NCBI GenBank assembly: GCA_965235115.1
Contig: OZ249436.1
Coordinates: forward strand, 32,366,001 to 32,430,000
Length of the DNA: 64,000 bases
Source: Laetmonice hystrix
Lineage: Eukaryota
Direction: 5' to 3'
Below the pieces are notes generated by a model. The model did no database searches. It had not been told where the DNA came from and saw nothing but the letters and a program-made list of their open reading frames with translations. Position 1 is the first letter of the stretch. Every line of letters starts with the position of its first letter. The position numbers and the translations under genes were made by a program. Positions 20,481 through 59,700 of this stretch are shown one piece after another.

Positions 20481-20727
20481 ATGGCTGCTCGGCGCCATCG
20501 CACGGGGCCCGAAGCCCTGCTCCGGGCGCGGGCCGCCGGGGCCACCGCCACGGTGGGCCGCCGGGTTGGTCACAGCGGAGTACGGACCAACGCCCCACGT
20601 TGGCGTAATCGGTCAAATAGAAAACAGATTTGGACGATGCGTCTGGTAATTCTGTGGACCTTTCTGATATCTTCCTGCACGGCGTCGGCCTCCACGACGA
20701 TGGAACCGCCTCGTCGAGAAGAGCACG
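20481..20727 (+). CDS. InR: InR exon 1 (signal peptide; ATG at 20481 or 20637)
   Basis: [18 protein letters not shown] hydrophobic signal from 20637. Donor G|GTGAG at 20728; phase 1 matches exon 2. Confidence 0.8.
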
Positions 20728-32700: not shown

Positions 32701-35700
32701 CCCGGCCACACAGAGCCGACTCCCCCCAACCCGATGGTCGGAGGCCCGGGGGGTCCAAATCGGCCGACTACTCAGTCAGTCTGATATATGCCCAACCATG
32801 CCACACTGAATGCGATCCGAAAGTCGGGAGTGGGATGCCACACTAGCGACACCACTCGTGACCAGTACAGTATATACTATTGTAACTATTCATTCCCCTA
32901 GCGGTAGTTCCCACTCCGCCATATTGTTTGTGTTGTCCCGCTCGCAGGGTATCTTGGGAGTAGCGTTTGTATGGTGCGCGCTGTGATTGGCTGGTAAGCA
33001 GCCCGACTGATGAGTCTGGTCGGTAGGTATGCCACACAGGCCCGACTAGGCCCGACCAGACCAAACCGTTTGGTCGCTCATCTTGTGCAGGACAAGATGA
33101 ACGACCGGACTGGTCAGTCGGTGAAAAACACCCGACTACGGCCGACTGACCATGCCAGACAGGGCCGACTACCCCCGACTCGACTCCCCCAGACCATCGG
33201 GTCGGGGGTAGTCGGCGCTGTGTGGCCGGGCCTTAACCCGATGGTCGGAGGCCCGGGGAGTCCAGATCAGCCAACTACTCAGTCAGTCTGATATATGCCC
33301 AACCATGCCACACTGAATGCGATCCGAAAGTCGGGAGTGGGATGCCACACTAGCGACACCACTCGTGACCAGTATATATACTATTGTAACTATTCATTCC
33401 CCTAGCTCTAGTTCCCACTCCGCCATGTTGTTTGTGTTGTCCCGCTCGCAGGGTATCTTGGGAGTAGCGTTTGTATGGTGCGCGCTGTGATTGGCTGGTA
33501 AGCAGCCCTACTATTGAGTCTGGTCGGTAGATATGCCACACAGGCCCGACTAGGCCCGACCAGACCAAACGGTTGGTCGCTCATCTTGTGCAGGACAAGA
33601 TGAACGACCGGACTGGTCAGTCGGTGAAAAACACCCGACTACGGCCGACTGACCATGCCAGACAGGGCCGACTCGACTCCCCCAGACAATCGGGTCGGGG
33701 GTAGTCGGCTCTGTGTGGCCGGGCCTTTAGGTAATGTAGGTCGACCGTAGTTTTCATCAATGGTTTTATAAGACCTGGCTCTATGGGTCAGTTCATAATT
33801 TAGGATAAGTAATCCATTCTGGCCGGATACTCACTGACTGGTCAATCAGTAGATTTATTCTGACCAGGCTGGCCAGTGTACTCACTCAGTCACTGATCTG
33901 TAGCTGGGCCTATGGTCACACTCAATGACTGTTAACTTGGTAAATACTTGGGGAAGAGATGAAGAGGGGGCCTGCTTTAGGTGGGAGCAGCAAACAAAAT
34001 TGAAAATCAATTTGACCATCAAAAAAGTGTCATCCCTATGATGACAGTGTCATAACAAGTTGTTGGGACGTAAAATCCTCCCTAACCCCTGTTACTGGAT
34101 TTCACATTTTGACACTAACTGTCCAAGTACAAACGCAAGAACGCATTCGACATCGTATCAACACATTCGAGGATTCTAAAAGAAGTATCATAAACTTGAC
34201 TTACCGTAAACTACCTGCCAACATTATTCGGACACTTGCTATGAGAGTGGGATATTGGCAATGACCCCCAGCAAACTCGTCCGGTAGAGTTTTTTTGGGC
34301 TGATAGTAACAGCGCAGTGTGATCGGTTAGTTTTGCACTATTGCATGCCAGGAAGCAGGAAGCAGGACTAAAGGCTCAGGACTGAAACTTTGAAAGTATT
34401 CCTCTCGAAGGTGTTTGCTTAGAATTTATTTTTATACTGTATCTTAAAGGAAATATGTCATGGGGGGGGGGTATCGACCAAAATCTTCAGTTTTCTGCTT
34501 ACCTGCTCACCACTGACGTACTTTATGGCACTGATTGTTTTTCATATTGATTCTGTTAACACATACTACGAGTAGACAGCTGTGAAATTCTCCCTAATGT
34601 AGAAAAATGAATAAAACTAGCTGCAGTATCCGCAAAGTGCGATAAATCTGCCGTCTAAGTAAATAACAAATAAATAAATAAACAAATAAATAAATAAATG
34701 AGTAAGTAACAAATCTATAAGATGATAGTGGGACTATAATGGCCCATCCGCCGATCGTGTGAAAAGGGTGCAAAACACAGCCGGCTGCGAATCCCGGGGT
34801 CTCGGAATCTAAGTGTGTCATTTTCAGTGACCGCATTAAGAATTGGCCTTTTTTTTACAAAATACCAACCAAAGCTACATAAACAGGTAGGGGACCTTTG
34901 GGGCAATATCGGAGAACCGCAATGCAGACATATTTTTGCTGAAACACGATGTATTATTTGAAATTCGTGACATATTACCTTTAATCATTGTGTCGAGGCG
35001 CACGATTCAATTTTATATAACTTAATGGCCTCAGGTTAGATAACTTGATCTTTATTTTAAAATGCAGGTGTTTACTGGCAAAGGTAATTTCTTATCTAAT
35101 TGCTTTTAACACTCTTAGTCATTGTCGAGACTTGCACTGATGTATTATTTGTTGATATTTAAATATATACTGAAAGTTAAAAATAAAAGAACCTTTCTTT
35201 TCATTTCAGTCTCATATACTGTATACCACAATATACTGCAGCAACACAAACCTCCCACTAAGTTCCTTACTTTAAATTTGGATGTGGGTGAAGTTCTAAT
35301 TTTTGCGGGACTTGTCTGAAATATGCAGCTTCCATTCATATTTTCCGGGCCGACTATATCGAGGAAGGACATAACATAATAACCTAGATCTTTGGTAATC
35401 GAAGCAAAAAGGCAGGCAGCTACCAAATGAGGGAGTCCTTTTTTACATTTGTCGTAAAAGTTTTTCACATATGTAGGCCTATTATAGTAAAAAAAAAATT
35501 CACATTTAGCGTATTTCGTATCAACAGGGGGCTTAATGTATGTATAAAACCTCTTAGGAACGCCGTAGACACACTGAAAAATGATTACCCTGGAGTCAGC
35601 TGGGGGTCTTAAGCCACTGGAAGCAAAGTTTTAGACAGAGAGTCGGATTTTCACATTTGACGTAAAAGTTTTTCACATATGTACAGGGTTTCCGCCAGAA

Positions 35701-38700
35701 AATAATTAATGGGGGGGACGGGCGAGCCCGGAACGGGGGGGGGGGTCTGGGGGCCCTCCCCCAGAAATTTGTTTTTCATGAACTCCGGAGATGCGTTTTT
35801 CTGGCCTCTCAGAGCGAGAATAGCTTAAAAAAAAACACTGCTCTGCAGATTTATGGGGGGGATATCCCCCTCATGTCCCAATCATGGGGGGGATAAATCC
35901 CCCCCGTCCCCCCCTCTGGCGGAGGCCCTGATGTAGTAAAATATTTTTTCACATTTAGCGCAATTTATTTTTACATTTGACGGAAGGTAGTTTTTACATA
36001 TGCGGTAGATTTTTTCACATTTGATGGACGTTTTCACATTTGTCGTAAATATTTGTTACATATGACGGCGTTTTTACATTTAGCGGAATTTTTACATTTG
36101 AGGGTGCAACAGATGTACCCTGATAGCAGTACAAGTACGAGTCTGCGGAGTCAACTTTGGGCTGAACTGAATGGCTTTTATTCATGGTGAAATGAACAGT
36201 GTAAAAATATGTACCCCGCAGTCTGTTGAAACCCGATGTATGTAACCATCAACCTGGTGGGCGGTTGGGAGGTGGGGGGGGGGGGGGGGGGGTACAGGCG
36301 GCATGTAACTGTAAGTGGTGAAATAAGAGTGTTATTGCCAGGCTAATATATAATATATCTGATGGTATAATGGCAGTGTGCGAGAGATAACATTAGATGT
36401 CACTGAATGATGACTGCAAAACAGAGATTGACATAGATTCAAAAAAAGCATCTGGCAGATAAAAATAACCATCTACTTCCCGAGCTGTTTGTTGGATGCG
36501 TCAAATATCGACATTTTTTTTATAAAAAGTTTAAAGTGAAGGTAAATTGGCCAAAAAATCGGCATTCTTAAAACACATTTGTATGATACATTGTATTTGG
36601 AGTCCATACATATAGAATGCTACCACAAATTACTTCATTTTGGGTATATTTCCTTGCGAAATTTGCATGCAAAATCAGATCCTTTACATTGAATTTGAAA
36701 AGGTGATCGCCTTTGACCCGGTTCGTTTTGATTTTGTTGGTCATTGGTCATTTTTTTGGTCAAATAGATCTGTGATATGTTGGCCAACTACCTGAATGAA
36801 ACTCCCAGCCGGGCCCGACGGCAAACGCCATTCCATAGAAGCACAGACTTGAACACGTAAACAGGTCTTACAGTTCACGGGGCTGCGAGTGTTTCAGATG
36901 GTAGGCTTGGCTATCATGGCCAAGTTGTTTACATCTTGTGTCGAACCATTATGCGGCAATATTGATCCAGAGTGAAGTTGTCCCAGCTTAGTATCAGTAC
37001 CCAGTGTTTGTTATCCGCCATATAATGCTAATGACCTAGAGCACACACAAATCCTTAATTAGGCCTTTGGATTTGACCAAGGCATAAAGACTTAAATTGT
37101 CGCCAATTTTATTGTCATCTTGGTCTCTGCAGATAACCCCATCAGGTCTTGATATAAAAATTGAAATCAATGCTATAAATGAAGATATTTTTAGAAGGAA
37201 CATGCACGTACAATTACGCAAATCGTCTACTGGTACTACTTGTTTTGAGGAGAGAGAGAAAAAAATAAAGGGATTCTCAGATTTGGCCTAAAATTTGGAG
37301 TTCATAGTTTGCTGGCTTGATCCTATCAGAATCTGCAATATGGTGTACAAGGATACTTCACCTCTGCCAAGATTGGCTAATTTTTCAACTTAGCTTCATT
37401 AGAGACTCAAAAGGTTAAGAGGCAATTTTTTTAAGATTCAGGCAGTGGGTGATATATGACCCCCTCAGATTTGCCTGAAATTTTTTTTGGTGGAAGGCCT
37501 ATTGGTAGAGAGAAAAATCCTCAATTTCTAGGTCCCTAAACCCAACGGTTTTTTTTCTAGGGCCTCTAGAAGGGTCAGTTTTTTGAGGGCGAAAATTTGA
37601 CTTCTTACATCGCTGTCAATGGACATAGGTATGGCGTGACGTACGTGTACGTATAGACCGTACAGACAGACGGACGGAGGTGAAATTATAAGCCCCCGTT
37701 GGGGGCTAAAAAGAGATGACTGTGCACAGTGTCACACACTATGTCCATTGACAGCGATTACTCAGAAGTGTATGGGTCGATTTCTTTGAAACTTCACACA
37801 ATGATCTGAGGATGGTGCACGTCAAACAGATTTTTGATATTCTTCAAAATGGCCACTTGGCGGCCATCTTGGATGTTAACACAAATTCGTGTTTGTAAAC
37901 TTAACCACATTGCGATGGTCAGAAAAGGGTTAATACAGCTGAACCCCACTATAATCTTTATATGACAGTTAGTAGACATACTGAGGGCTGCCTGATAAAA
38001 AATATTTCATTCAAATCTGATGAGGGCGCATTGAGAAATGTGACCCCCCCCCCCCCCCAAAAACACTGAATTTTGCGTTTTGACTGACTTGAGCATCACC
38101 TATACTCTCTTGCCTTTATTATCCCACATTAATTTCAAGTGGCATAGTATGGCCTAATAAAAAAACCGTTGGGTTTAGGGATCTAGAAATTGAGGATTTT
38201 TCTATCTACCAATATGCCTTCCACCAAAAATAGTTTCAGGCAAATCTGAGGGGGTCATATATCACCCTCCAATGGTAATCTGCCTGAATCTTAAAAAAAT
38301 CGACTCTTAAGTATACAGCAGATGAGCAGCTCATTTGTTATTGAAATGTATCAAATTCAATTGAATCTGCAGTTCCAAGTTTCAAGACTGACTTTTGTTA
38401 TTTTCAGATTTTTTCAAAGTTCCTAGGTTTGTTTTTGAATAAAGATGATGTACTGATGTTACAGTAGAAGTTGCCGTAAAGATAAAACTCCAGAAAATAA
38501 GGAATACAGGAAAGAAAACACATGTGTCGAAGATGCACAAACACAAAGAAACCCTTGCACAGCAGGTTATTCATATTACATCATTGAAAGAGTCTGACCC
38601 TTGAATTTTGGGTACTGTTTTGTTGAAACTAGATTTTCGCATCACTTAGAATTACCAGTATATTTGCTACATAACATGGATTATTCTAGGTGAACAGGTT

Positions 38701-41700
38701 TTACCCCAGGGTATATGTAGTTGGTGGTTTACAAACTAAAGAAACGTGTAACGACTACATTATTAGAGGACTGCGTGTTTGAGTTAAGCCGCTAGCAAGT
38801 GGAGTTTTCATGACTTGATTTTAAAAGCCTCCGGTTATGTGTTAGAGTGAAAGAAAGGGATAACCAGATCTTAAATATTGTGTCATGTTGTTATTGCAGT
38901 ATGTGAGGCTGGATGCAATGGATCATGCTACATGGCGGAAAACGGCCTGCGTAAATGTTGTAACGAGCAGTGTATTGGAGGATGTTTTGGACCGACTGCC
39001 AAGGACTGCTTCGCTTGCAAACACGTGCTTGGCATTGAAGGCAGGTGCCAGTCAAGATGTATTGCTACATTCAAAGTAAGTTTACATGGTTCAAGTACTT
39101 ATTTTACGTGGTTCTTTGCATCTATTAACTGTTGATGTACATTGTGGTTTTTTCAAGGCTCAGGAAGCCAGAAAAAAGGAATGTTTCGGTAACATGGATG
39201 GTCAGTGATGGTATTAAGAATTCCCATGACCAGGAGATTGAGACACCCATGACCAGGAGATGGTCAGTGGTGGTATTAAGACACCCATGACCATGAGATT
39301 CAGACACCTATGACCATGAGATTAAGACACCCATGACTAGGAGATTAAGACACCTATGACCAGGAGATTAAGACACCTATGACCAGGAGATTAAGACACC
39401 TATGACCAGGAGATCAAGACACCTATGACCAGGAGATTAAGACACCTAGGACCAGGAGATTAAGACACCTAGGACCAGGAGATTAAGACCATGACCAGGA
39501 GATTAAGACACCTAGGACCAGGAGATTAAGACACCTATGACCAGGAGATTAAGACACCTAGGACCAGGAGATTAAGACACCTAGGACCAGGAGATTAAGA
39601 CACCTAGGACCAGGAGACCATGACCAGGAGATTAAGACACCTATGACCAGGAGATTAAGACACCTAGGACCAGGAGATTAAGACCATGACCAGGAGATTA
39701 AGACACCTATGACCAGGAGATTAAGACCATGACCAGGAGATTAAGACCATGACCAGGAGATTAAGACACCTATGACCAGGAGATTAAGACCATGACCAGG
39801 AGATTAAGACACCCATGACCAGGAGATTAAGACACCCATGACCAGGAGATTAAGACACCCATGACCAGGAGATTAAGACCATGACCAGGAGATGGTCTGT
39901 GGTAACATTAAGACACCCATGACGTCATTGGTGACATTAAGACACCCATGACCAGGAGATGGTCAGTGGTGACATTAAGACACCCATGACCAGGAGATAG
40001 TCAATGGTGGCATTAAGATTTTCCATGACCTGGAGACCAGGATAAATAGTCTTAGTAACAAATAGTGTTGTTACATTGTCCTGCAGGGCATGATTGGTAA
40101 CCTTTGTAAATTCTGAAGGTGTCTGTCACGTTTATTTGACTGGGCCAATGTCTCTACAAAAACTTGGTAACACTGTTATTGCACCTGATGAGAATGGAAT
40201 CTCTGAAATAAGGTGTATTTAAAAAACAAGAACAAGAAACAAGAATCAATACAAAATTACGTTGGACCGGTGTGGCAGTGCAGACCTCTCCAGCGTGATC
40301 AGAAGGTCCGTTGTATTGGAGGCGACCAATTATTTGCCTTTTTGGCCACACACCTAAAGGCCTGGCCACACACACCGACCCAATCGTTTACGATGGGTCG
40401 GGTCGGCATCTATCGGTCTGTGTGGCCGGGGCAGCCGATGGATTCATCGCGTCGCAGTTTTGGTCCACAATACCTGGGTGTCCACAACTTCTTTGTGAGT
40501 AGAAATATTAGCAAACAGAACCGGACAATAGGTCATGGATGGTAAAGTTATAAGCCTATAGGCTGACCTTCAAGAGATGACAAGGGTATTTATGTACCTC
40601 CGAATTGCCTGGGGATTCGGACAGCGCCAAGAGAGCAATCGAAGATCGTGTGAAGATTCAGACACCTATTGAGTGTTGAGGTGGGATCACACCGGGCGGC
40701 CCGAGTCATGATGCTATGACACAGCGTCGGTTAGCTGTGGGTGGCTGGTTGGCTGGGCCGGCGGGAAGGCAGACAAGCGGGCGGGCGAACCTTTGGTACC
40801 TGAATCGGGCCCTCTTCTTGTGCTAACGGGCAGGACTTGTTTACGACCTGGTTTCCAGACGAAGAACACTTGACTCTTGGCTCTGCCGCCACAGAATCAT
40901 GTATGAGACCCGGCCAGATGATTGGGCATCCTCACCTCAAAGACAATCAGCACGCGGGCAGGTTTTATGGCTCTGTTTACTCGATTCAAACCAATCTGCC
41001 TTCGTCGGGGGAGAAAGAAAGAGCACCTTAAAGCTAGTGCCAAGGTGAAATATGGGTTAATGATCTTCTGACTCATCCAGTGGCTGATACACAAACAACT
41101 GCAATCGGGACACTTTCAAAGCAGAGTTAGCTACAACGAAAAGAACTTTTTTTTTTCAGTGCAAAACATATTGTATTAATATTGATAGTAGTCGGAGTTT
41201 TTAATATGATGTTGCAAAGTACCGACTCATGATGCAATATATTTTGGAAGCGATGTAATATATTATCAGTTTTTCACTTTTCTTTCGTGCATTGAAGAAA
41301 AGAGTCTGAGGAAACGGAACTCATAAACATAGCAAAAAAGTTGTTATCGCGTTAGGGAGCCCAGATAAATTACATGAAAAAGGTCGTCCAATAGTCCTCA
41401 GCAACGAAATTGTTTCGTTGCCAGTTAAAGCTTGGGATCGATCCTTAGTGCAGCTCTACTTGGTGAGGAGAAATGTTCAACTGACCGTTCGGGGTCAATG
41501 GTCACTGGAGTGTGAAGTCAATGGGTGTGCTTGACTTTTGACTTCTATGTAGATTTTCTGTTCGTCATGGCTTGAAGGGAATGAATGACATACATGTACA
41601 TGTATAATATATAAGACGAAGCTACGACGTAGTTCACATGGCTGGCTCCATTCATTGTAATTGGAAAGTCAGTGAAAGTGAAAGTTTTATGTAAGTGAAA

Positions 41701-44700
41701 TGGACCGTTTTCCCCCCTGCAGATGACAGTTACCTTTGGTTGTGAGTTAGTGTTCTTCATAATAGTTGGTGTTGTTGACTGGTCTTGGTCTTGCCTGACA
41801 CACAGTGAGTGTACATACAACCGGTATCACCCCATCTTCCGGTGATTATGTCAAAAAGTTATTAGGTGGGACCCAACCCGAAGAAGCGGCGCCTTTAATT
41901 TACCCGCCGTCCCTATGTCTATCCGTCTGTAGACAGTGATTTCTCAGACGTGTCTGGGTCAAACTGTATGATACTTAAAGGGAGGGAAAACCCACACGGC
42001 AAATAACGTTTCGTAGACCAAATGAAACACCAGCATTTACCTTAGGGCAATAAATGCCACAATTACGTTGTCCTATTGAAGTAATTTTACGTGTAAACGC
42101 CCGATGTGTGATGCCGCTGGTTCCTACCTTGCCCTGCTTGTGTGTTCATCACCTCGGACGTTTACAAAGACTGGGACTCCAAACATCGTGTAAACACGTC
42201 TGTGAGCAGAGTAACCCGTAATATTATGCAATACGCCGTGGTGTGCAGCATTCGGCTGTGATGAACACACAAGCAAGGCAAGGTAGGAACCAGCGGCATC
42301 ACACATGGGGGGGGGGGGGGTTACACGTTAATTACTTCATTCAGACAACGTAATTGTGGCATTTATTGCCCTGAGGTAAATGCTGGTGTTTCATCTGGTC
42401 TACAAAACCTTATTTGCCGTGGGTGTTGTCCCTCCCTTTAATACCGAGCCGAATCGGATGATTTCGGTGTCATTTTTCATCAAAAAAGATTTCCTTTCCT
42501 ACCATACCAGTCTTACGTACCAGCATAACGGAAATATACTATTCCGTTTTTTTCTGGGCCACCCTGTATATGACGTTTCAATGAGATGCATAACTGCATA
42601 TCTCAAGATAACGGTATATAGTTGATATAAATGTAGGAAGTCGTATTTCCATTTCAAATTTCATTTGTCACGATTTCCCTTTACATTAAGTGACCTTGTG
42701 AGGTCAGTCAGGGTCATATCTTTCTAGAAAACGGTTCAAGATAACCACTTACCATGAATAATGGATGAATACATACCTGAGATTTCTTTGTGAATCATGC
42801 ATCAAAGATGTTCTCACATAGACTCTATCTCAAGAATACAAAGTACGCCTAGTTACTTTACTCACAGATAATTAGTGCTTTTTACAGTTTGAGGCTCCTG
42901 CTCCGACCGGCTCATGTATTCTCTTGGATTTCTTCTTTAAAATAGGTAGATTGCCGAAGGTGAAAAGCATCCAGTCACTATCACATTTTCATGAGGTGCT
43001 CGCAAAAGCAACTCATTCACCAATCCTGATATTTTTGGGACAGGCTCTACGTGCATTATAATTCATCAAAATTCCAAGGAACTAAGATTTTCTTCTTCCG
43101 GTGTAACAAAAACACCTCTGCTTACGTGTTGATATAATTTAATAACAAAACACCACTTTGTATTGAATTTCCAGTTCATGAATCGGAGGTGTATCTTAGC
43201 AAAGGACTGTCGGAATATGAAAGATAAAAACCGACAGCCCTGGAAGTTGCATAATAACGAGTGCATCCGTGATTGCCCAAGTGGATACATAGAAGACGAG
43301 CAAGACAGGAACAGTTGTAAGAAATGCGACGGGCCATGTCCAAGAGGTAGTTATGTTTTATACATTAAAATGCATACAGTTCGTCGTAGTTCACTTTTTT
43401 AGCAGAACGTTTTTCCGATATTACTCAGGTGTACGAATTACCAAGTTGTTTGTTCTCCAAGGCTTTGTATAAAATAGAGTCGTAGTATGTATTTCTATGT
43501 TACAAACCGGTACTAAGTAATGAGGCGAGTAAAGGACAGTGTTATACCAGGGCTTGTGTTTGACATGTATTGTAGATTCATCCTGGCTGATACAACAAAA
43601 TGCTTGTTATATAATGGCACTATAATGTGGTTTTCAAGGCTGTAAGAGGCAAATTAATAAATTCAGAAGAAGAAAAAATTACAAAAGTTGTTTTCTGTAT
43701 GACAGTGTGCCTAGCGAAGGTGGTGGACAGCGTAGCGACGGCCCAGAAACTGAAGGGATGCACGGTCATCAACGGCATCCTGGAGATCCAGATCCGAGGA
43801 GGAAGTGAGTACACCTCCCTTATGCACCCCACCGCACCCCCCAGCCCTGCTCACCCCAAACACTCTCTGTGCGTCTGGAGGGAACCGTCTCGGGTCGTCA
43901 CTCGGCCGTGTCGCCGCCTGCCGCCTCTGGCAGCAGCCACGGTCCAGTGAGCATGACACGAACTGGGGTGACCTCCGTCCTCCGTTTGTAAACATTTCTA
44001 ATATTCTAATATTGCCTTCCTAGTAAAAGATTGACAGTCATGTTATTCCATTGACAATTACCATGCAGTTCCAGCTTCCTACAGAACCCCCCCCCACCCC
44101 CACCCCACCCAGGCAGTTTTACACAACAGGGTGACTGCCATATTGATCTTGGCCAAATTTCTTGATGGCAGTGCATTCAGACTCAATAGAACATGGTGAT
44201 TTTGGAAATGAGATTGAGAAGCATGTGAAAAGACCTGAAAAAGACCAAAAGAAGACATTTAATTAAGGCAAGAGATTCGTTAAGATTTAAGGCAAAAATA
44301 CGAACAATTAGAAAAGATCACAACGGTTTAGGAAACTCAGGAGAACATGTTTTTAGAGTACTGCAGGTCGAAGTAACAAAAAAATTGGTTTTCCAATAAT
44401 GAGTGAAGATGAACTAAATTGCAAATGTACTGGTAAAACGTTGCAATTCCTAGGTGCCACGAATACCTGGAAAAAATTGAAAAAGTACCATGGTGTGGAT
44501 CATTAATTAGAACTCCTCTCCTTCTTGAGTATAAGTCGTAATAAATTAAATCCACCTTAGTCAAGTAAGTCACGGGTCGTACTATAGACATTGTGAATTT
44601 GTCTGAACCACGCTTAGATAGGTCCATTTTGTGCTTTATCTGATTCTCCATAACTCTTAGTAAAAGAGTTGGTCTGAAATTCTCAATAATTCTATAATTC

Positions 44701-47700
44701 GCAATAAGCTGTACATGGAGTTTGAGTTTTGTCACACCTTGTTCTAAGAAGATGTGTTTTTTCTGCTAATTTCTTTTGAGGGCCAGGTCCACCAAGGTTT
44801 GCGCCAGCGTGTCTTATTGTGACTCAGCCTGAAGTCCTGACGGCCGCAGACATTAGCCAATTTGTATTCACAAATCATTCCACATTGTTTCCAATTCCAC
44901 TTTTGAATTTTTAGACCGCCGATTTCAAGCAAACCAGACATTTGATCTCCTTGGTATTTATCTTTTTCTGTCTATCCTTGTTTCTTCATAAATATGTATA
45001 TACAGTATTAGAGAGAGCGCCGCCAGTACAATAGACGAATAGTATCAGAATATTTGCAATTGAATTGAAAAGTCTGAAAATCGGTGCCGTTTCTAAAGTT
45101 CCGTTGCCGTTCAGTGTATTAAAGCCCGATACGATGTCTCAATAAGCTAGCTGGCTGGTGGACGAGGTCCTTTATTCCAACCATGTGTGTTTAGCTGGTA
45201 TACGATTTTGACCTATATTGAAGTAAAGTTAATACTTGTAGGTTTTGTAGTAACCTCATTCACATTACCCCAGTTTTCTTGTTGTTTGGATATGTTATTG
45301 CTGTGTGTAATCTGTGTCGTTTCCTTCTGACGTCATTTTTCTTCAATTGTCCTGATTTTGCTTGTTTAGTCTTTTTTTATTTCAGTCCCAGCCGAATATA
45401 TCATTACAGGCTAAAGATAACTGTTACTTTATCCAGCGTGAGTGATATCTCATCGTGGTGACATCTGAACCCCATGATCTAGATGCTATTTTAAGTCTTG
45501 TCCATCACATCTTTTTCTGACCTTTTGAGACAACAGAATGCTATAATTATCATCAATCATGTAAAGTCCGGTTCAAGGTCCCTTTTGTAACAAAATAAAT
45601 GAGTCCAACGTTGAAAATGCTGATTAAATTCGGGAATGCTATTCCTGCTTCAGACATGTTTGAGCAGTTATAAAAGAGTGAGTGCCCCAAGCAAATTCCA
45701 AGTATGTACCACCAGCGGTACATGGTAGATCATGTGTGTACCAGGTTTCACCTGAAATCTTAAACCTCGTATAGAACCAAGCGCTAATTCATTAAAATAA
45801 GCTATAACAGTGTTGCATGCCAATGCGTACACGGAGAGGTCAAAACCTGAAATCTAGATTTATTTCATATTATTGCAGAAAGTTTACCTTTCAAATGTAG
45901 TTTAGGTTGACAGTATCAGACCTCCAAGACTTTTGTGAGTCTGAGCAATGTAGAAGGGCGTCAGAGTTATCAAATGTACACAGTGTATACATATTTATAT
46001 TGTTGGGAGATCGTGAACTTCTAACTTTAGGCCGGATGTTTCTGGATTAATGTCCTTTTCTACGAATTGATGCCAAAGGTCATTGGGTACATTCTCATTC
46101 CGACCTCCTTCTGTCAGGCAATTAATGTACCACGGAAATCCTCATATCGGCCTAGATTACTGCTAAATTACTTTTTGAACTACTCTTGAATCTGTCGTCG
46201 GGGGAAGAAAAATATGTTTTGAATTCGGAAATCGCTTGCTAAGGGTCAAAATATTAATTTGTCTGTGTCCCTCACGGAATTCTAATTGATCCGATCACCG
46301 TGACGGTGCGTGGGGTCCGACGTGGCCGTAACGTGACTGAGGGGCGTGCTGCTCGTAGTGCTGGCCTCGTAACGTCCTGCGCCATCTTACCTCGACCACA
46401 CGTGGTGATAGGAGGAAGGAAGGGGGCCAGCTGTGTATCAAAGTCCGCCGGCCCGCGGCCCAGCCCGTGCTCGTAGATACTACACAGTTTAAAACATGTT
46501 TACCACGCTCCGCACCTTGTCTACCGAGCTCAAGTCCACATTTATTATCATACATACAGGAATGTCCAAGTCGATCTTGACTAGCCCCCCCGGAGGTAAA
46601 GTTCGCATGTTTGTGGGTAGGGAGGGTGAGGTGAAGTGGAGGGGGGGGGGGGGGTACTAAGGCAGACGTCAACGGGCAGCCGTCAGGTCAGACAGTGCAT
46701 TAGACTTGATGTTTGTCCCCTAGTTTGGGAACGGTGATAGAGCTAGTCATTGATTAGGAAATACACCGCACTTGGCCGCCGCGGGAACACATCTCTGGAA
46801 TCTGATATTATGTTCCAGATTTGAAGACATTCAGGCCTAACAATGATCACGTCGGGGCTAGTCAACATGCGGTTGATATTCCTCGTATCAAGGTGAAATA
46901 TGTCTCGAGATGTGTCCGCAGTATTGAGAAAAATTAGGGTGCAAATTTTATTTCGAAATTATTTTTTAATTAGAATCTTGGATCTAAACCTAGATACATG
47001 TAATTATATTCTGGTCCCAGTCAAACTAGGAACGATGGCATTAATAATTTTAGACCCCCCCCCCCGCTCCCTTTACTCAAATATAACAGATATGTAAAAT
47101 TGTTTTTCTAACAGATAGTTTTGAATTACACTTGAGCATTTGATCCTGTACGGTAACCTCTACTATTTATGATAGCACGTTTTGTGTTTTTCGTATTTCT
47201 ATTTTATAATTGCTTACGTTAATCCATATTCTTGTTTTAAAATGTTTGTGTACTACTGTATGTTTTTTTGTTATACTTCACATTAAATCTTTTACTAGCA
47301 AAAATACTCAACTATGATATCCGTCTCAGAAACCTAATGAGCTATTTTAGTGAACATTGATGTCTTGTCATGATTAGGTGAGCTCATGGTTAGGTGAATT
47401 CATATACTTGGAAGTTCAAGTTTAGGAACTTGAAACCAATTGGTGACTCGAGTTCTTGTAAGGAAGATGGTGAAGGGCCTGAATATATTTGTCTGTTGAT
47501 TTTAAGTCTTGTTGCTTAAACGTTACGCGATCAAAGTTTCTCCTGTTTGTATCACCACATGTATAATAACATTATTTGTATTTTTTTCTAGGGGTATAAA
47601 AAATATCAGCTGCGTTATCTCAACAGAGGGGTGTTAAAAATGTCTTTTGCTTAAACTCATGCCTTTGCAGGTAACATTGGCCGAGAGCTTGAAGACAGCC

Positions 47701-50700
47701 TGGGCCTGATCGAAAAGGTGACAGCATATGTCAAGGTTGTCCGCTCGTTCGCACTAGTCTCTTTACAGTTTCTCAAGAGTCTGAAAGTGATCCAGGGAGA
47801 CCGCATGTTCAATAATAGGTAGGTGAAAGCGATGTGCGGTCAGTCAGCAGATGGGAGGAGGATATGGCGGCCAGCCAGCCGTTTCCCAGTAGGGGGCAGC
47901 AGGTCGGGTTGTTGTCGGTCGGCCGGTCGGTCGTTAGGCCGGTCGGTCGGTAGGCCGACAAGTGGGCGATCCGTGTGTGAGCGGTCGGGTTGGCTGTACT
48001 TGTGTCCGTCCTGTGATGTCCTCCACGGGCCAGCAGGTGTCGCCACCGTCCAGTCCTGTGTTACACCACCGTGGTCGTCGTATGATTGAGATATGTGTCC
48101 GTCTGCCTGTCTGTCTGTCTTTACAGTTTTTTCAATGTGTTTGCACCTTTCTTCTCACACAGACCGAGTGATGCAGGAGCTAGAGGAGAGTTTGGGAGAC
48201 ATTGAGAGTGTCTCAGCCATAAAGATAATCCGATCAGTGGCCATAGATTCCCTCCGCTTCCTTGCCAAGTTGAGACTTATCACTGGATCGGTCCTGCATA
48301 ATAGGAGGTGGGCCACATCTTGTAACTACAGCTTTTGACGGCCAGTGTCCCCCTTATATCGAAACCAGTCTTCAGAATGCGCTGAACGTCTGCCCCTTGG
48401 AAAACAATCTTCGATCATCTATGTGTTTTGTGTGTCATGTCAGATTGTGTGAATTTGTTTTACTACACTGACACATAAACTAGAGCACATTTTAGTGGCC
48501 TCGGTTCCGTATATAAGTGTGTCCACCTTCCAAAAGATTTTAACCGAAGAAGATTGATTACCAACGGGTCAGGTGATGGAATGTGCTTTGCTGAATGGCG
48601 AATAGTTCGCACTCAGATGTAAAAGCTTTTAACTGCATGCTTTTTATTACATAGATGCTTGTAGCTGCTAAACTGGTCAAATCCCAAGGTGCATCCAGGG
48701 CAGGTGTATAAGGGCAGGTACCATTGTAGTGTTAGACTGAGTTGAAATGAAGGGAATACCTTACGATCTGTAGAAGGACATACAGATGCGGTTTTGTTCC
48801 TCGCTACAATTAGAACCCACCAGCAGTCAAAAGTTTTGGCAAAGATGAACCAACAACCCATGGGAAGTTTGTGGCATTAATTGTTAGGAAATCTCATTAA
48901 TATTGTGAATTGGAATAGCATTTCAGATTTTTAATTCTAGTTAGTGTGAACCCATAAAACCTCCACAAAGCTCAAACGATTGGAACCCACCAGCAGTCAA
49001 AAGTTTTGGCAAAGATGAACCAATCACCCATGGGAAGTTTGTGGCATGAATGGTTAGGAAATCTCATTAATATCGTTAATTGGAATAGCATTTCAGATTT
49101 TTAATTCTAGTTAGTGTGAACCCATAAAACCTCCACAAAGCTCAAACGATTAGAACCCACCAGCAGTCAAAAGTTTTGGCAAAGATGAACCAACAACCCA
49201 TGGGAAGTTTGTGGCATGAATGGTTAGAAAATCTCATTAATATCGTTAATTGGATAAGCATTTCAGATTTTTAATTCTAGTTAGTATGAACCCATAAAAC
49301 CTCCACAAATGTCAAACGATGTATTCCTTGTCCCGAACCTGGATTGGACCTGGTCAGCTCTCTGTCATGCCAGCACTATTACGCCTTCGTGTATGTTCTT
49401 TTTTTGGCACTTGGAGCTTGGTTTATGCGAGAATTATAATCAGTGCCCCAGCCAGTATGTCCGCTTGCAAAAGGAAATGATAAGAAAAACCCAGTATAGG
49501 AGACAAAGTGCTTGGCGTGATTTCTATAAATCTGGTCATATTTTATGAACGGCTAAAACACGCAAACTTGCACTACGCATGAGCCATCATAATTAGTTGG
49601 CATGTTGGTGATATGTTTAAAACAAACACTAGTTCCGCTTTCGCTGATAGATTTTTTTCTCTCTATCTCTCTCGAAATTTGGCATGTCTCCGAATACTCA
49701 ATAAACACGACTAATGTAATGTCCTCGCAAGTCCCCCCTCTCCTCCCCACCCCACCCCACCCCACCCGCCACCGTCTGGGTGGAAGGCTGTAATCTACAG
49801 GTGTAATTTAGAGAGCCACTCAGGAGGATGTGGCGGGCAGACCAGGGCTGGTGTCCGCCGCCGCTACCCGCAGACATCGTGATAAACCCAACCAGGTACT
49901 GTCAAAACAAGCTCATCCATCAAAACCGGAGACCACACACAAACACACACACAAGACAATGGAAACAAGACGGATCTCCACTCCCAGTCGTCGCCCACAG
50001 CCAGTCTAGTGGTGGCATCATTTCCCCTCTCCCACCCCTTTTTGTTTTTCTTAAATTTCTTTACATATCACATTGGAACTGATGGGAAAAAATGCATATA
50101 TATTACGTTTTGGGAGAGTAGTTTCGTTTCTCTTAAGTCTGCTGGTATTTTGGTGCAAGGGGAAAAAGACGCTTGTTATTTGTAAAATGTTTTGTTTGAG
50201 ATCATCTGCTTATAGTGCCATGTAGTCAATTAGCTATTTTGCATTCCATATTAGATTTGATTTGCACGTTTATATGTGTAATTTTAACAATATTACAAGA
50301 TTTATAGTTTCTATTTAGAAGTAACTTGTTCTCATGATTTAAAAAAATTATTTGACGTATTTGTGCTATGTGCTTTCTAAAGATAATTTAGAGTTGCGTC
50401 ATGTGCTTGATTATCAAGTTTGTGAAGTTTCTTAGTTTAATTTACAAACTATGAAATACGTGCTCCTACTCGTGATACTGTGTGCCACTGAACGCATGAT
50501 ATGGTAGGTACCGAGGACATTCAGTGCCGGTATCACCGGCTGCTGTGAACACTAACGAGTTGCCCATCAGACGACAGTTACAGAGCTCTGTGTTAACTAT
50601 GCCATGTTTGTTAAGTTTATGTTGAAGGTTGTTTTGATATTCGTTGAGCAGTGTTAGTAATAGACCTGAACTAGGGACAAAACCATGCCATGACCTCCTT

Positions 50701-53700
50701 ACTCATTACTTGCTTTTATGCCAAAGTTTTTGCTTTGCCGACTATCCAAGCAACATTCCATACTGGTCCCGGAGGTTAATGTAAATTACAAGGTGGTTTG
50801 ATGTGACAAGAAATATTTTCTTCTCGAGATTTGCTTATGTATTTTCTTCAAGCTAATAGAAATATGCAGCCAACGCCTTTGGAGTATTTGAGATTTTTTT
50901 AGAACTGTCTGGGAGCTAGGACAGCTGATTTGGTGGTATATGCGTCCATGTGTAGAGTTTCTGCAGATAGAGTAAAGGAATGTTAATGGGGTTGATACAA
51001 TTTTCGAATATAACTAATATGACTATACATGTATCCCCAAGGGATCCGATAATGGGCCAAGTTTGGTCAACATAGTAGGTCAGCTGGCCTCTTATTTAGC
51101 CGTCATTCTGATTTTACCAAGGTAGATGCTAAAAATATTCTGAGTATGCTTTTACATTGAAAGTTTATCGAACAAGTTGAACAATGTGCGAATTCAGCGT
51201 AAATAATTGAGTTGGTCAATATTAAACAAATTTGGTTTTGTGTGGATAGGTCAGTTGGCTTGTCATTGAGCTTTGGATTGGGTTTCAGTAGGATATATCG
51301 AATTTTGATAATATGATGGTTGAATAAGACGACTTCCGTCTAAAGTAGAGTACAAAAGTGAGCTACTGTTACTGTTGACCAACATAAGACACACGTACTG
51401 TTAAAGACGTGTCATACTGGGTCAACTTTTGGAAATACCCGGTAGCAAATTTAAAGAGAGTGGGAACAGAGAGGTCGGCCTTTCTGGCTGGGTTGTGTGA
51501 CTCGTATTTCATCATATCTTTGATTGAGGTGGTGTCTTTCTGCGAATTTGCGTAAGTTGTTCTGAGAACGTGTATAGCCCAGCCCCTTCCTTTCTATTCT
51601 TAGTATTTATAGAAAAGGAAAAGGCCTTGGAAAAGGCATCAGATAAAAACCTTTCAGTTTCAGTGATATTGCAGAACTGTCATTTCAAAAGGGGGAAAGG
51701 TAGTGGACCTGTAATTTGTGGAATTTTTTTATAGCTGCCAGTATCTCACGAGCCTTAGCTGCACAAATGATGACCTATTCTTACTAAAGTGTTAATAACA
51801 TGGGTCGATTCAGTAGATTATAACCCCCCCCCCCCCCCCCTTTCATCAATCCTTTCACTGGGCAGTAAGCCCAGGCATGGCGGAGACGTCGGTTTGGGAG
51901 AATCGTTTTTTCTTCTTCTAACAAGGCTGGCCTATTCCTCAATGTATCTTGTGATATTTTTATAGGACATACTGACTTAAATAACGGGGTCATGCTTTTG
52001 AGACTGCACCCCATGTTGAACTACCCGCAACCAACCAGCCCTTCACTGACCTGACCCTAAACAGCCCCAGTAACGTTCTTGACTTTTTCCTCATATCTCA
52101 TGGTAACCTAAGTCTGGATCGACCGATAATTTGGGCCAAACTTATTTTTCTCTGGGAACGGCTGATAACATACTGAACCTTGTAGGGTGGAAGTGATTGT
52201 CGGAGATATATCGTAGACCGCTAACGTGCCGGACTGCAGGGAGACTGGTGCACAATATGAATTGGTTTGTGGTTCATCAGTACTGAGCTGGTGGGTAATA
52301 TGGTTGAAGGGAGGGAGGGGGGGGGGTCGTGCCCCTCCAGCCCCTGCACCACGGCCGGTTGGACTCTATTCAGTCCAGTCTGTGTTCCAAAGGTTGCGTT
52401 CTAGTGCTCACCAAGTTGGTTCTCCCCCCCCCCCCCCCCCAGCAGTGAACTAATGTCTAGTACAATCAGATTGGTAGGTGACCCCAACACATGCTGTCGT
52501 CACCTGCTTGTAAGAAGAAAGAAAAAAATTAAAAAAAGGAAGATCTTGCCAGCAGTAGAGCGTGGCTCCCTGTTCTTCATTGTAAGACAAATGGTTCAAC
52601 AACCATTATCGAGAAAGGTCGTTTGGTGAGTTCATGATCGCAGACTTTGATATCCACCTTATGTATGTGCCCTTTGTCGTGCATGGACTGTGAAGTCAGC
52701 AGTAATGGGAGAGACAGAAAATGACAACATATCTGAAAACCGAGTACCAACGTTCTTCATAGAACCCCGAGTTTCCGAGATGTTGGCAGTGAGGCACGGG
52801 ACTGAGAACGATACTACACAAGTAATTAATAAGGCCTGATGATGCTGATAATTTCTGATAATTGAAATTGTATTTTATTTTTAGTCGCTGTCGTTCACTT
52901 GTGTTTTATCAATCAGGCCTTGTTTACACTGTTTGAACATCTTTGTTTTCGGGGACTAAACATGCAAGGATCGTAAAATCAATTTGTTTTGGCAGAAAAA
53001 GCTATCCGAAATTTGTATGGATTGTGACTTTGTCAGCTGACAGGAAAGGTAAATCATTTGTAGCTCGGCCAGATTGCAGATTACCCATGTTGCCCAGGAC
53101 GATTGTTGTGTGTGCGTGTGGGGGTGTCCATTAGGGTGGGTGCTTGGGTGGGTAGGAGGGAATAGTAGTGACAAGATAGTACAACGATTTCAATCGCTGA
53201 AATATGCGTCTGTTTCAGGAAATGGTTTTGAATATATGTCATTGAAAGGGAACAAAATCCTTACCCGCACAACTTCGTCTTAAAATTTTATCCGAATGAT
53301 ACCGTGTAGCATGTACCGGTATTGAATTATAGTAGACACACTACAGGTATTTCATCATAAATTCCTCATAAATTATCGTTTTGGCACTCTGAGCATATAT
53401 TTAATATGGTATAGGACTAAAGCAGTCGATAGTGAACACTTAATTGTCAGCAGCTTCAGTGACCCGAGGAGGTATAGAGAGAAGGAATTAGATTTGGCCA
53501 TGTTTATAGAGAATGAGGCCAAGCAGCTAGTGCAGAACGTATAGGACATTTCAGTTCACAAGTTGAGTGCTAACGGGTTTCGGCCATAAGTTCATGGTAG
53601 CATTGATAAAGTCCAGTCTTGAATAGGACTTAGTGAACATTTTTTTCACTCCAGTGAGCTTATTTTTGTATATACAAGTACAAATGATAGGTTTAAAAAA

Positions 53701-56700
53701 ATTAATATAGGGGTTTCTCTACCCATTGACTGAAATATGGCCTTCTGTATGTGAACAGTAAACAGAAGACCAATTAAGGGCACTAGTTAAAACTACTAGC
53801 GTTATTAAAATTTCACAATAATGACTGACATTGGTGTTCAATTCCATTGGTCAGGTATTCTCTCTTCGTCCTGGACAACCAGAATCTTCAGGATATCTGG
53901 GACATGAAGACCCATCCAAAGCTGACGCTCGCTCAGGGAGATGTCTTCTTTTATCAAAACAGTAAACTCTGCTACAATAAAATTGTTGAATTTGTGAAAT
54001 CAGTTGGTCGAGAGGTCAATGAGCAGAATGTTTCACCGGTGAATAACGGCGACCAAGTGGCATGTAAGTGGAGGTCAATGTGATTTTACTGTTGAGGTTC
54101 GTAACTCAGAGAGCAGAACTGAATTCAGCTATCATGTATGTAGTTCTGTAGACAACTACATTTTACTTATTTTTTGTCGATCAAATGAAGAGTTTTTCAA
54201 AGCCGCAATTACTCGCCGAAAGTGGCTGTTGTAATAATTGTACCCACTCAGAACGGAATATAATGGAGATGGGACGTGTAAAGATAAATGCACAGCTAGA
54301 GGTAGGGGGGGAATAACGTACCTGTTTCGATTAGGAAGTTTTGAGATTACCGTTACTCTCAGTAATTCTGTAGCATGCATGCGTGCTATATTTATGAAAA
54401 ACTGATGATGTGCGAGTTTCATGGTTTGTAATTTGATGAGTCAACTATTTATAGTGGGGCTACATTTAAGAGAGGTCTGGATGAGTTGTTGTAAGTGATT
54501 TTTCTTGTGTTTGTAGGCAACATCAGTCAGATGACCCTTGAGGTGACAAGTTTGCAGAGTACGTTGGTTGTAGTGAAGTTCAGTGTGTTCAAAATACGTG
54601 ACACGCGGAAGCTTCTTAGTTACGTTATCTACTACAGGGAAGCGTAAGTATCATCGGGTATAACTTACTATTCTGAAGAAAAATATACAACTTCTAGTAA
54701 CATTTCATGTCAGCTCTGCTTTACAAAATAGGTCTTCAAAAATGCAGGACTTTGTAATAAGAAGCCTCTGTCGAATAAACTATAATTCCTACTCCTTTAG
54801 TTTGTAAATTTTGGGATTTATAGTATCTAAAGATGACCAGCATCACAAAGTGTGAGAAGATGTTTGACACGACTTCCATTAATTTCCTATTCCAGGCCAG
54901 TGAGAAACGTGACCATTTTTAACATCAAGGATTCGTGTGGATCTGACGAGTAAGTTGTAACAAGTAACTGCATGCCTTCTGGATGTATCCATAGTGAAGA
55001 GTAGCACAGCTACACTGGCGTCTGTGGTGATGACCAGTATCAGAGCTGATACCTTAATAAGAACAATATGAAATCTAATTTAAGAAATTATGAAAGAAAG
55101 ACTTGGGATCTGCAATGAAGAGTACCCTATTTAGAACTGGCTGAATGTTTGTTTCAGTTGGCAGACTCTAGATGTACGTGCAGGCGATGGAAGCGAGAGG
55201 GATGATTATATAGCCGAGGTTATTTACAACCTGAAGGCTTGGACTCAGTATGCCATGTATGTACAAACGTACACAGTGGCGATGACCAGTCAAGGGGGCA
55301 TCTCGAAAATCATATACTTCACAACACTTCCAACAAGTGAGTTGAATGAACAGTGATATGACAAGAATATTAAGCTTCTTAGTGTCTGACTCCATTTATA
55401 ACAAATCTCTACCAATTGCCAATCAATCTTCCATGTAATTTTTGACCACGAAATATCTTAGTATCTGTTTTCAATGGCAAATTTGTTATTGTGCCTCCAG
55501 CACCGACCCATCCGAGGGACATTAAGGTTGAGGCTGTGTCTCCATACGAACTGAAGGTTCGCTGGCTGCCTCCCAGCAAACCTAATGGGAATGTGACCCA
55601 TTACCAGGTTTACTGGCAACCGCAACCTCCCAACCAGGAAAAACTTGACCAGCGCAACTACTGCAAGGATAGTAAGTGACACTCGTATCACTTAATCTAA
55701 GGACTGTTACAGGAAAAGTATGGGGTAGTTCATCTCATTATTAGAATCTTCATGTTTTCAGTGAAAAATAATTAGCCAGGGGAAACCAATGGTTAAGATA
55801 AGATGCAAGAATCCGTCAGAAATTTGTGATTTTATTAATTTGGACTAAGAAAATTTAAAGTACAATACGGCTAGCTGCCGTGCCAGCATGGTAAAAGGGT
55901 TATAACATTGTGCTGTAGGACTGCACCTGTCTATGAAACGGCGGAAAAATGAGGTAGAACAGGAGACCCATGACAACGAAACATGGGTCGGAGAGTGCTG
56001 TAAGTGTCCCAAGTCTGAGGAGGAAGAGCAGGCTGAGGAGGAGGAACGCCACATGCAGATCACCTTCGAGAATTTCCTCCATGATTCGGTCTACATTAAA
56101 AGGTTTGAATTTATGCTTAACTGCTTCAGAATCCTATCTACATAGTCTAGCAGAAGCTGTGTCTGTAATTGAAATTGGTATGTGGAATGGAATATTATAT
56201 TAAAACAAAATTAGGCCCCCCCAAAAAAATTCCCGATTTCTGGTCCAAAGAAAATTTCAAAAGTGGTGCGGTGACGAGGTTTTTTTTTTTTTTTAATTTT
56301 TTTTTTTTTGGTGATAGCTGGCTAAGATGGTAAGCCTCATAACAATTATCATGTAAAATGAACTCATAGATAAGGAACATGAGCTTTGCTGTCATCGCTT
56401 TGAATACAAACACACTTCCGTTGCAGTCGGTTAATGAAATATCCATTACAACAATGGTTAGTTTTAAGCCTTACCGCTAGGTGGCAGCACAATTCACAGT
56501 CATCCAAGGTGAGGGCAAGAAAAAAAACACTGATGCGCGGCATCTTAAGTGATGCGCGCGCGGACCAGAAACCGGGAATTTTTTTTTTTTTTGCCTTATC
56601 GCTGGAGTATCTTTTTTCTGGGCTGGGGGAAGGGGCAGATTTGAGTTGATGAGTGAGAGATTCAGTTATGTGTCCTGAATTACATTGAGCCATTGAACAA

Positions 56701-59700
56701 AGCTGTTCTGTACAAACATTAGCCCTGACTGACAGGTGTAACATTTCTGTGACAGGCCTGTCATGAAGGCACAGACACCAGATGCAGAGGCGGTCATAAC
56801 CAAACCAAATGGCAGTGAGACAGTTACCGACACGCGCACAAGACGTATCCGTCGTAGTGTGCGTGCTAACTCAATGAACAAGATTATGGAGCTAGGAAAC
56901 AGCTCAACCTGGCATTTCAACTACACGCTGCCAAATGTCACCTTGTCCAACGATACCGATGAGGACAACTCGGAGCATGAAGCCTATCTTGCAGCCGTAG
57001 TCTATGGCAAAACTGAAATGGTGCTTCCTAATTTAAGACACTTCCAGGAGTATAGTATAGAGGTAAGAGCCAATGTATTTTCAGTCCCGACCCAATATGG
57101 CGACCTTGCCATCATAATATTATTTATTTTTTGACCCCCATAATAATACTGTTTGGACTCATTTATTGAAAATGGTGCAGGGTAACTGGGCAGTTGCTAA
57201 TAGTAACAAATAGATTTGATAATTGAGAATATTACAAACTCGCTGTCATGGCTTGGGTTCTGTTTGCTTCCTAGGTGATTGCCTGCCATGAACCAGAAAC
57301 TACGGACTATATGAGTACCGAGAAAAAGTGCAGCAACCGAGCAATCACAACAGGACGAACCCTTCCTGCATGTTGGTGTCTGGTTTGTTATACCAATAAT
57401 AGGGGCAAGCGTAGCTTTTGGAGCCAAGATAGCATGAAAATAAAGTTCCTGGTTTGAAAATAAAAATTAATTTACAGTTGGAAAACAAGACGAAGCATTT
57501 TTATCAGTACATGTATATGTTAATATACTATACATCTATACAGTAAAAAGGTATGCCCAATGTAGACCCCTGTTGGTCTATTTGTAAATTAGGGATATAT
57601 AGAGGTGGCTGTCTTCTTTTGAATGGAAAAATGAAGATATTGTAAAAAGGTACTGCCTTGAAAGGAAACTAAGATTTGTAACAAATTTCATTCTCTGTTT
57701 TAGCAAACGTTGATGTGATCGAACCTCGCCAAATCAATGTGTCAAATGAGACGGATGGCCATGTTCGTCTAAGGTGGCTCGACCCACCCAAGCCAAATGG
57801 TCTCATTGTTATGTATGAAATAGAATACGGACTTGTTAGCCAGCCAGAGGTAATATCATCATCAGTCGTTGCTCTTAAGGGGAGAGAAGTAAAGTTATCA
57901 AAGAAAGTGAGAAATTACCCATCAGGGCAGGCAGACCTCCGCAGGAAATTGTGGATTCACTGTTATTTTTATCATAGACGCTAGCGAATTCTGAGGTCCT
58001 TTATGACATTCAAACAGATTTAAAGAAAAATGTATTTTATGTCAATCAAATAATTCTTACGAACAGCTCATGCTGTTGGTATGTATATTACTGGGTGTTA
58101 GGAATATGTCCTTAGGTGTGTTATGATAGTGCAATGTTCATATCGTGCAGATTTTGCTGATGTAATGAATAAACTACATTATGTGTTAACTATTTGTTGT
58201 GCAGGTTCAAAAGTTGGTCCGCTGTATACCACACATCGAGTACCGGCGGCAAGGAGGGATTGCATTATCTGGACTTCCCTCCGGCAACCATTCATTTCGT
58301 ATCCGAGCAACATCTCTTGCTGGCAATGGATCATGGACTCGGGAATTATTCTTCAATGTTCCAGAACGATGTTAGTTAGTCTTTTAATCCTAGGATGCTC
58401 CTGGTTGTATTTGGAAAACAGTCTTTTAATCCCAGGATACTCCATGTTGTATTTGGAAAGTACAGTAGTCTTTTAACTCCTTGGATGCCCCAGTTGTACT
58501 TTCGACAGGAGTTAAAAAGTAGATTAAATCCTCTATGAACTTTAAAATATTTGGATCATGTTATAGTTGGTGTGTTGCCTACTTCAGATGTGGACAACTC
58601 AATGAACCCAGAACTGATAGCAGGGGTGGCTGTGTCAGCTTTCCTCGTCCTGATCGTTATCGTAGGGGTGATTGTGTGGATGATTGCAAAGAAAAGATTT
58701 CACCTCAACATGGCTCAGGGAATGATCTATGTTTCTGTCAACCCACAGTATTTCAATGCTGAAGAAGGTATGTGAAGGATGAATCCACTAAGATTGTGAA
58801 TCCTGCATGAGAATGCCACTTGCAATGTTGGATGAAAAATTCTGTGACATAGTTGCCGATATTCTTTTCCACCAGATAATATATTTTTGACAGTGACTAG
58901 CCATGAATTTCCCCATCTTCAGTCCTTTATTGTTTCCCAGTAAAAATCACGCACTGTATTTGGCCGCAGAGAAGATGAGACTATATCTTTGCACCTTTTA
59001 CATAATGATAAAGAAGTGTGAAATAATGGTAGATAGCACCTCTCGAGTCAGTATGAGTGATATTGAAATGTTGCATGCAGGATCTGTGTAGTTTGGATTG
59101 ACATTTGAATGCCATTGCCGGCTTCAGCCTATATTCCAGACGAGTGGGAGGTGAGCCGGGACAAGGTGGAGCTCATCAAGGAGCTGGGCAAGGGCTCCTT
59201 CGGTATGGTACACGAGGGCATAGTCACTGACCTCACGCCTGACCAAGCGACTCTCAAGGTGGCCGTTAAAACTGTCAACGAGAACGCATCCATACGGGAT
59301 CGCATCGAGTTCCTCAATGAAGCTTCCGTTATGAAGTGAGTGTTGGAATCAGTTGACTGTATGGGAGTTATATCCGATGGGGTCAGGGGGGTGTTTCAAT
59401 AAGCACGACGGACCGTCCGACCCACGACGGACCTTCCGACTGGCGACAGACAGTCGCCGGTTAGACGGTCCAACGCACTTATTGAAACACCCCCCAGGAT
59501 CCTTGCAATGGAATACATGTATAATAAAAGTTGGAAGGTCTGCCAAAGTTATTAAAATGTATATTTAATAATTACCTTTTTTAAAGGCATGTGTTTTTAG
59601 AGAAAACTCTTCTCACGTAGAGTGTTTCTTGTCACTTTTGGTTCTGAGACGTTTAATTTTAATCACAAAGTGTTTTCAGGTGTTTAACTGTAATCACATG

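Follow-up and report, generated by a model that had tools for sequence, protein, structure and literature searches.

Introduction

Splicing of alternative exons diversifies several receptors whose organization is close to that described here. In FGFR1-3, two mutually exclusive exons (IIIb/IIIc) encode part of one ectodomain module, an Ig-like loop that sets the ligand range, as proven by RNA and by function (PMC3238399). Within the insulin receptor family, the daf-2a/c/b variants of C. elegans, which involve exon 11.5, are described as analogous to IR-A/IR-B (PMC7041946), and the X1 and X2 isoforms of Acanthaster do not differ in the part shown, the first 400 residues, which covers most of the segment considered below (PMC8286064). 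In the accounts available, the known isoforms either include or omit a cassette close to where the alpha chain ends, or are truncated receptors; none swaps homologous exons of the L2 domain. Here we describe an insulin/IGF-type receptor gene of Laetmonice hystrix, located in a stretch of 64,000 nt (assembly GCA_965235115.1, contig OZ249436.1, positions 32,366,001 to 32,430,000, forward strand), which is referred to as the window. In this gene the middle exon of L2 is present in two adjacent copies, 6a and 6b, which probably derive from an old tandem duplication and persist as mutually exclusive exons, with up to three copies in relatives.

As in FGFR1-3, the predicted pair of mutually exclusive exons codes for part of one ectodomain module of a receptor tyrosine kinase. 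The worm receptor differs from the FGFRs in that the exchanged receptor-L segment is not known to bind ligand directly, the splicing is predicted, and up to three copies occur. With daf-2 and Acanthaster it would share the diversification of one receptor gene via ectodomain splicing. Insect receptor duplications and decoys likewise provide several ectodomains for many peptides (PMC7253209); however, the insect case is one of whole-gene duplication, whereas the worm genome contains one gene match. In exons 4.1/4.2 of Drosophila serpent and in Dscam, an upstream docking-selector pairing favours the downstream copy (PMC4691838), and this resembles the helices predicted for two related loci, L005 and L006. 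Unlike serpent and Dscam, the worm loci have no significant competing downstream helix, and the pairing in the window is at chance level. A known splicing device of the FGFR IIIb/IIIc type apparently occurs here in an unexpected and undescribed place. In the literature available to us, we found no account in which exons of L2 are swapped, although subscription journals, genome annotations and supplements may hold one.

Results

Two probably alternative exons within the L2 domain

The gene consists, in order, of a signal-peptide exon, L1, the Cys-rich (CR) region, L2, FnIII, the transmembrane (TM) segment, the kinase and the tail. The presence of L1-CR-L2-FnIII-TM-tyrosine kinase in one gene assigns it to the insulin/IGF receptor family. 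The L1 exon has a single match in the 627-Mb genome, which indicates one receptor gene match. In a quick whole-protein tree, whose rows included no named annelid, the receptor was placed outside the molluscs and closest to that of the nemertean Lineus (59%).

Exons 6a and 6b have the features of tandem-duplicated mutually exclusive exons: they are adjacent and homologous, have similar lengths (both 3n+1) and equal phase (1 to 2), and are bordered by valid splice sites (Table 1). Either copy alone holds the frame and codes for the same structural segment, the splice paths 5-6a-7 and 5-6b-7 both being open. Inclusion of both copies (5-6a-6b-7) leads to a TGA at 48203-48205 within 6b, and skipping of both (5-7) leads to a TGA at 53905-53907 in exon 7. 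The preliminary description of this DNA had given the coordinates of both exons exactly, together with their phase and open frames, and the two stops that it had predicted were confirmed. The same logic applies in the window, L005 and L006, where double use runs into a stop, so that decay of the wrong products would be available in all three genomes. Steric or U2/U12 exclusion was considered as a means of enforcement and is unlikely, because both introns are of the GT-AG type, the one between the copies measures 344 nt, and branch-like words lie <=40 nt from the 6b acceptor.

The two copies share 22 of 47 aligned whole codons in protein (47%), or 23 identities if the Arg at the junction is counted, as it had been in the preliminary description. 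Their synonymous sites are saturated (proportion of synonymous differences, pS, 0.81), and therefore they represent neither alleles nor an assembly duplicate. A search of the whole genome with the 6b protein returned 6b and 6a only, and a six-frame profile search of the window revealed no further exon-6 copy (the next best match was the L1 exon, 7.6 bits). Both exons are covered by contigs from three DNA-like read runs (at most one sample). The GC content of the intron between 6a and 6b is 58%, versus 41% in the flanking introns. A second AG preceded by a pyrimidine tract (48127-48162) lies 36 nt ahead of the acceptor of 6b; its use would add 12 in-frame residues, and this reading is not kept in P0126, one of the 6b-type sequences described below.

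Second copies in related animals

A full phmmer scan with 6b gave seven matches at E up to 0.001. Two of them, P0125 and P0126, are of the 6b type (89% and 62% identical to 6b, respectively); both were called as genes on long genomic contigs, with a reading frame that continues through the exon. They have in common with 6b the TD/RVMQELE start, the acceptor context, a one-residue deletion and the RWATS read-through past the donor. Since P0125 and P0126 also carry them, the deletion and the donor context of 6b are inherited and do not reflect decay. The remaining matches comprise four exon-6-like sequences of other types and one plant protein, taken as a chance match.

Of the related loci, two extend as far as exon 7, and extra copies are present in both. 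L005 contains three open copies in the same phase (148, 148 and 154 nt), and L006 contains two copies (148 and 148 nt) plus a frameshifted remnant of a third. The third copy of L005 (2263-2416) is intact and two codons longer, and the frameshift in that of L006 (~2735-2878) represents either decay or an assembly error. Faint exon-6-like words (~1054-1083, 4.8 bits) upstream of copy 1 in L006 are possibly an old remnant or due to chance. In L004 no second copy was found in the 467 nt behind copy 1, where the locus ends. In metagenome scans, first-copy sequences gave 374 pattern matches, of which 4 were confirmed, and the 6b alignment gave 309, of which none was confirmed; word-index searches of longer proteins yielded none with exon 7 (45 candidates), and an atlas search gave only low-scoring L-domain clusters.

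In a tree of 24 exon rows, one clade (87.5/93) comprised 6b, both of the 6b-type gene calls (P0125, P0126) and copies 2 and 3 of L005/L006. A separate duplication in each genome was rejected by the approximately unbiased (AU) test (p 0.0005). Over six constitutive exons, L006 and the window are identical at 164 of 254 positions, yet L006 groups with the window against Lineus, the molluscs and P0138 (94.9/96), which indicates that their split is old.

The second copy of L005 differs from that of L006 with a nonsynonymous rate (dN) of 0.214 and a synonymous rate (dS) of 1.08 (Fisher p 3e-5), that is, a dN/dS of about 0.2. The corresponding values are dN 0.152 and dS 1.22 (Fisher p <0.002) for copy 1 of the same loci, and dN 0.45 and dS 1.55 (Fisher p 0.0014) for 6b compared with copy 2 of L005. 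The exons of L005 and L006 are 76% identical, and the introns between their copies do not align. The alternative copy is thus conserved and under purifying selection, as judged by a DNA-level test against distant loci only. None of 40 listed read differences, out of 68, lies within 47486-48559, a weak signal (p about 0.014).

These results bear out two proposals made from the sequence beforehand: that the duplication is old (saturated synonymous sites, and a clade of second copies across genomes) and that the second copy has evolved under selection rather than neutrally. Orthologues of 6b are present in related animals (the copies in P0125, P0126, L005 and L006), so that neither of two outcomes named beforehand as refuting, a lack of orthologues and a neutral dN/dS, was observed.

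The exchanged protein segment

The preliminary description had spoken of two different L2 domains. Both exons do match an L2 segment, but the exchange concerns about 50 residues (INSR ~348-397) and not the entire domain. The segment corresponds to positions ~20-62 of Pfam Recep_L_domain, which is matched by 6a (E 1.3e-7) and by 6b (E 0.0027, under the curated cut-off), and both exons align with residues 349/352-393 of human INSR. Eight positions are invariant among 71 distinct rows of the family, most of them from vertebrates; seven of these residues are present in 6b, and the eighth shows a conservative change of L to I. The hydrophobic core is retained in both copies. Across genomes, second-type copies have Arg at 349 in five of six cases and Val at 350 in all six, and all six have lost the aromatic residue at 367.

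In the human receptor, L1, alphaCT and FnIII-1 provide insulin sites 1 and 2; a contact of R345/G346 in L2 with alphaCT is needed for activation, and in the apo state L2 contacts FnIII-1 of the partner (PMC6721835). The equivalents of R345/G346 end exon 5, two residues ahead of the swapped segment. Different ligand properties, which had been suggested for the two forms, are less likely because L2 lies outside insulin sites 1 and 2 of the mammalian receptor (PMC6721835). It is more likely that the swap would tune activation or autoinhibition rather than the choice of ligand.

Candidate RNA pairing in the introns

Conserved intronic elements flank the exon cassette, as expected of docking and selector sites. 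One is a 15-nt word located shortly after exon 5 both in the window (43930) and in L006 (576), and the other an 18-nt word common to L003 and L005 behind copy 1. A shared word as long as the former was reached in 3 of 1000 shuffles. It is present in two genome copies, a number equal to that of the reversed control, and is not a repeat. Long words common to L003 and L006 were set aside, as they lie in non-homologous places.

The element behind copy 1 is predicted to pair with intron 5 in L005 (-26.8 kcal/mol, 0/300 shuffles) and in L006 (-26.1 kcal/mol, 1/300 shuffles), and the 15-mer to pair with a site 40 nt before copy 2 in L006 (-22.8 kcal/mol, 7/300 shuffles). No competing downstream helix above background was detected, as assessed by a search that involved no shuffle test. 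The 6a-6b intron folded alone gave a z score of -1.79 (3/100 shuffles), due partly to simple repeats, and was not relied on.

Transcript-type sequences

Among 71 nemertean, mollusc and other receptor rows, which are annotations and not genomic searches for a hidden copy, 62 span the segment, and no exon swapped within a species was found in them. At the end of this exon, isoforms of Lineus (P0134-P0136 versus P0019) are distinguished by an extension of 6 residues. The contigs of the three DNA-like runs cover introns, show no splice joints and carry no information on expression. We infer the use of 6b in mRNA from its conservation.

Other features of the window and the genome

An in-frame ATG upstream of the candidate start (20481-20636) would set 52 basic residues ahead of the signal peptide. 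A kinase-domain intron of 108 nt (60366-60473), which splits the KIG/DFG motif, has a GC donor, is in frame and lacks stops. The upstream neighbour of the receptor gene (1195-2793) is an open frame of 532 codons with an SH2 domain near its end, which we take to be probably SOCS/CIS-like.

The genome contains at least one insulin-family match (contig C6, 36708349-36708423); this count is a lower bound because the exons are short. The protein genes of the mitochondrial contig (C35) share a single strand and are arranged as nad1-nad3-nad2-cox1-cox2-cox3-nad6-cytb-atp6-nad5-nad4L-nad4 (names assigned by eye from translations; atp8 falls under the length cut), which is the common order in annelids and assigns the genome to this group. 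The control region of the contig (1-2050) contains approximately four tandem copies of a ~512-bp unit, visible as repeating open frames. A search for erythrocruorin linkers gave no match.

Table 1. Position of the receptor gene, the exons of the L2 region and candidate intronic elements in the window
Feature	Position	Strand	Evidence or remarks
Complete insulin/IGF-type receptor gene	20637..62261	+	Pfam matches; tblastn with five lophotrochozoan receptors; candidate ATG 20637
Exon 5, start of L2, ends IQIRGG (INSR R345/G346 equivalents)	43706..43804	+	
15-nt intronic word, identical in L006, candidate docking site	43930..43944	+	
Candidate only, pairs best with the element behind 6a	44837..44854	+	
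Exon 6a, 148 nt, ancestral-like, with the SNIG.ELE start of molluscs	47671..47818	+	AG..GTAGGT
GT-AG intron between 6a and 6b, 344 nt	47819..48162	+	contains simple repeats
Element behind the 6a donor, resembles a motif conserved behind copy 1 in L003-L006	47830..47849	+	likeness by eye, partial
Candidate 6b selector for the 15-nt word	48068..48081	+	upstream of 6b
Exon 6b, 145 nt, derived copy, one codon deleted	48163..48307	+	AG..GTGGGC
Exon 7, remainder of L2	53855..54063	+	

Discussion

The duplication of exon 6 is real, old and conserved, and it is probably functional. Several observations weigh against its persistence as two mutually exclusive exons. For the window lineage alone, a separate duplication is not rejected (AU p 0.10). 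The GTGGGC donor of 6b is weak, and the exon has lost one codon and has a profile score under the Pfam cut-off. The third copy of L006 is frameshifted, which means that copies do decay, and in L003 no second copy was found in the 879 nt behind copy 1, a mild contrary sign because the spacing of copies elsewhere is 344-528 nt. A word-index search revealed no 6b-type exon among longer proteins (33 candidates), and both transcript-type relatives that span the region (P0020 and P0138) use a first-copy-like exon. Some of the predicted pairings are also at chance level: that of 44837 with 47830 in the window (-20.8 kcal/mol, 42/150 shuffles as good), that of 43930 with 48068 (-16.6 kcal/mol, 133/300) and the inner helix of L003 (66/150), and a 40-nt version of the outer helix is unsupported in the window (295/300) and in L006 (38/300). 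The best partners in the window are arranged as in the relatives. RNA pairing is a good lead in the latter and only a positional analogy in the window, because the shuffles were not beaten there and the query elements were picked after the sequences had been seen.

The weak donor, the missing codon and the lower profile score of 6b, together with the decayed third copy of L006 and window pairings not above chance, would also be expected if the cassette had worked in an ancestor and 6b were now a silent, decaying duplicate. This is improbable, since the exon has an open frame, intact splice sites and an intact core despite synonymous saturation, and the same deletion and donor context in P0125 and P0126 point to inheritance. 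We see little chance, too, that 6b is a poison exon spliced behind 6a, which would set the receptor level through mRNA decay or a short secreted L1-CR fragment. Truncated receptor isoforms are made by C. elegans (daf-2b; PMC7041946), and double inclusion stops in the window, L005 and L006; however, the position of the stop differs among these three genomes, and selection has acted on the L2 frame and not on the shifted one (dN/dS about 0.2).

An assembly artefact, or an allele placed in tandem, is refuted: nothing speaks for it beyond the simple repeats in the intervening intron, and 47% protein identity with saturated synonymous sites, contigs of three runs that cover both exons, and the same layout in other genomes are incompatible with it. 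It is somewhat unlikely that both copies are used and functionally equivalent, being either redundant or separated merely by where or when they are expressed. Most of the segment has a structural role, both copies retain the core residues, and the insulin sites of mammals exclude L2 (PMC6721835). Against equivalence, the differences between copy types (349, 350 and 367) are consistent across genomes. Such equivalence overlaps the splicing part of the explanation that we prefer, a kept pair of mutually exclusive exons, and disputes its functional part only.

In this preferred explanation 6a would be the default exon and 6b would be chosen in some tissues or stages, with nonsense-mediated decay removing the wrong products. 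Intron 5 may pair with the intron behind copy 1 and loop copy 1 out, which would help the second copy to be chosen. The full-length receptors, like their mixed dimers, would differ in the helix and turns beside the L2-alphaCT contact; the most likely difference concerns the activation threshold or autoinhibition, and less so the peptide bound. Probably, a single gene gives rise to receptors with differences in an activation-related part. A broader proposal is tentative, and we consider it rather doubtful: that the single receptor of a deep annelid clade evolved a cassette of L2 exons, expandable and with two to three members, chosen by nested long-range RNA helices, which gives tissue- or stage-specific receptors and hybrid dimers differing in activation threshold or peptide preference.

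Many invertebrates have one insulin receptor and several peptides, which raises the question of how differing outputs arise. The receptor hinges around L2 on activation, and a conserved swap within this domain would be a new route to receptor diversity. Exons 6a and 6b would constitute a natural variant pair for testing the role of L2 in autoinhibition and activation, and the introns around them hold a candidate switch based on RNA pairing in an animal that is neither an arthropod nor a vertebrate. Annelid annotations are predicted to miss such isoforms. If the broader proposal is true, the insulin receptor family would have an isoform switch like that of the FGFRs, and splicing would help to explain how many peptides can be read by one receptor.

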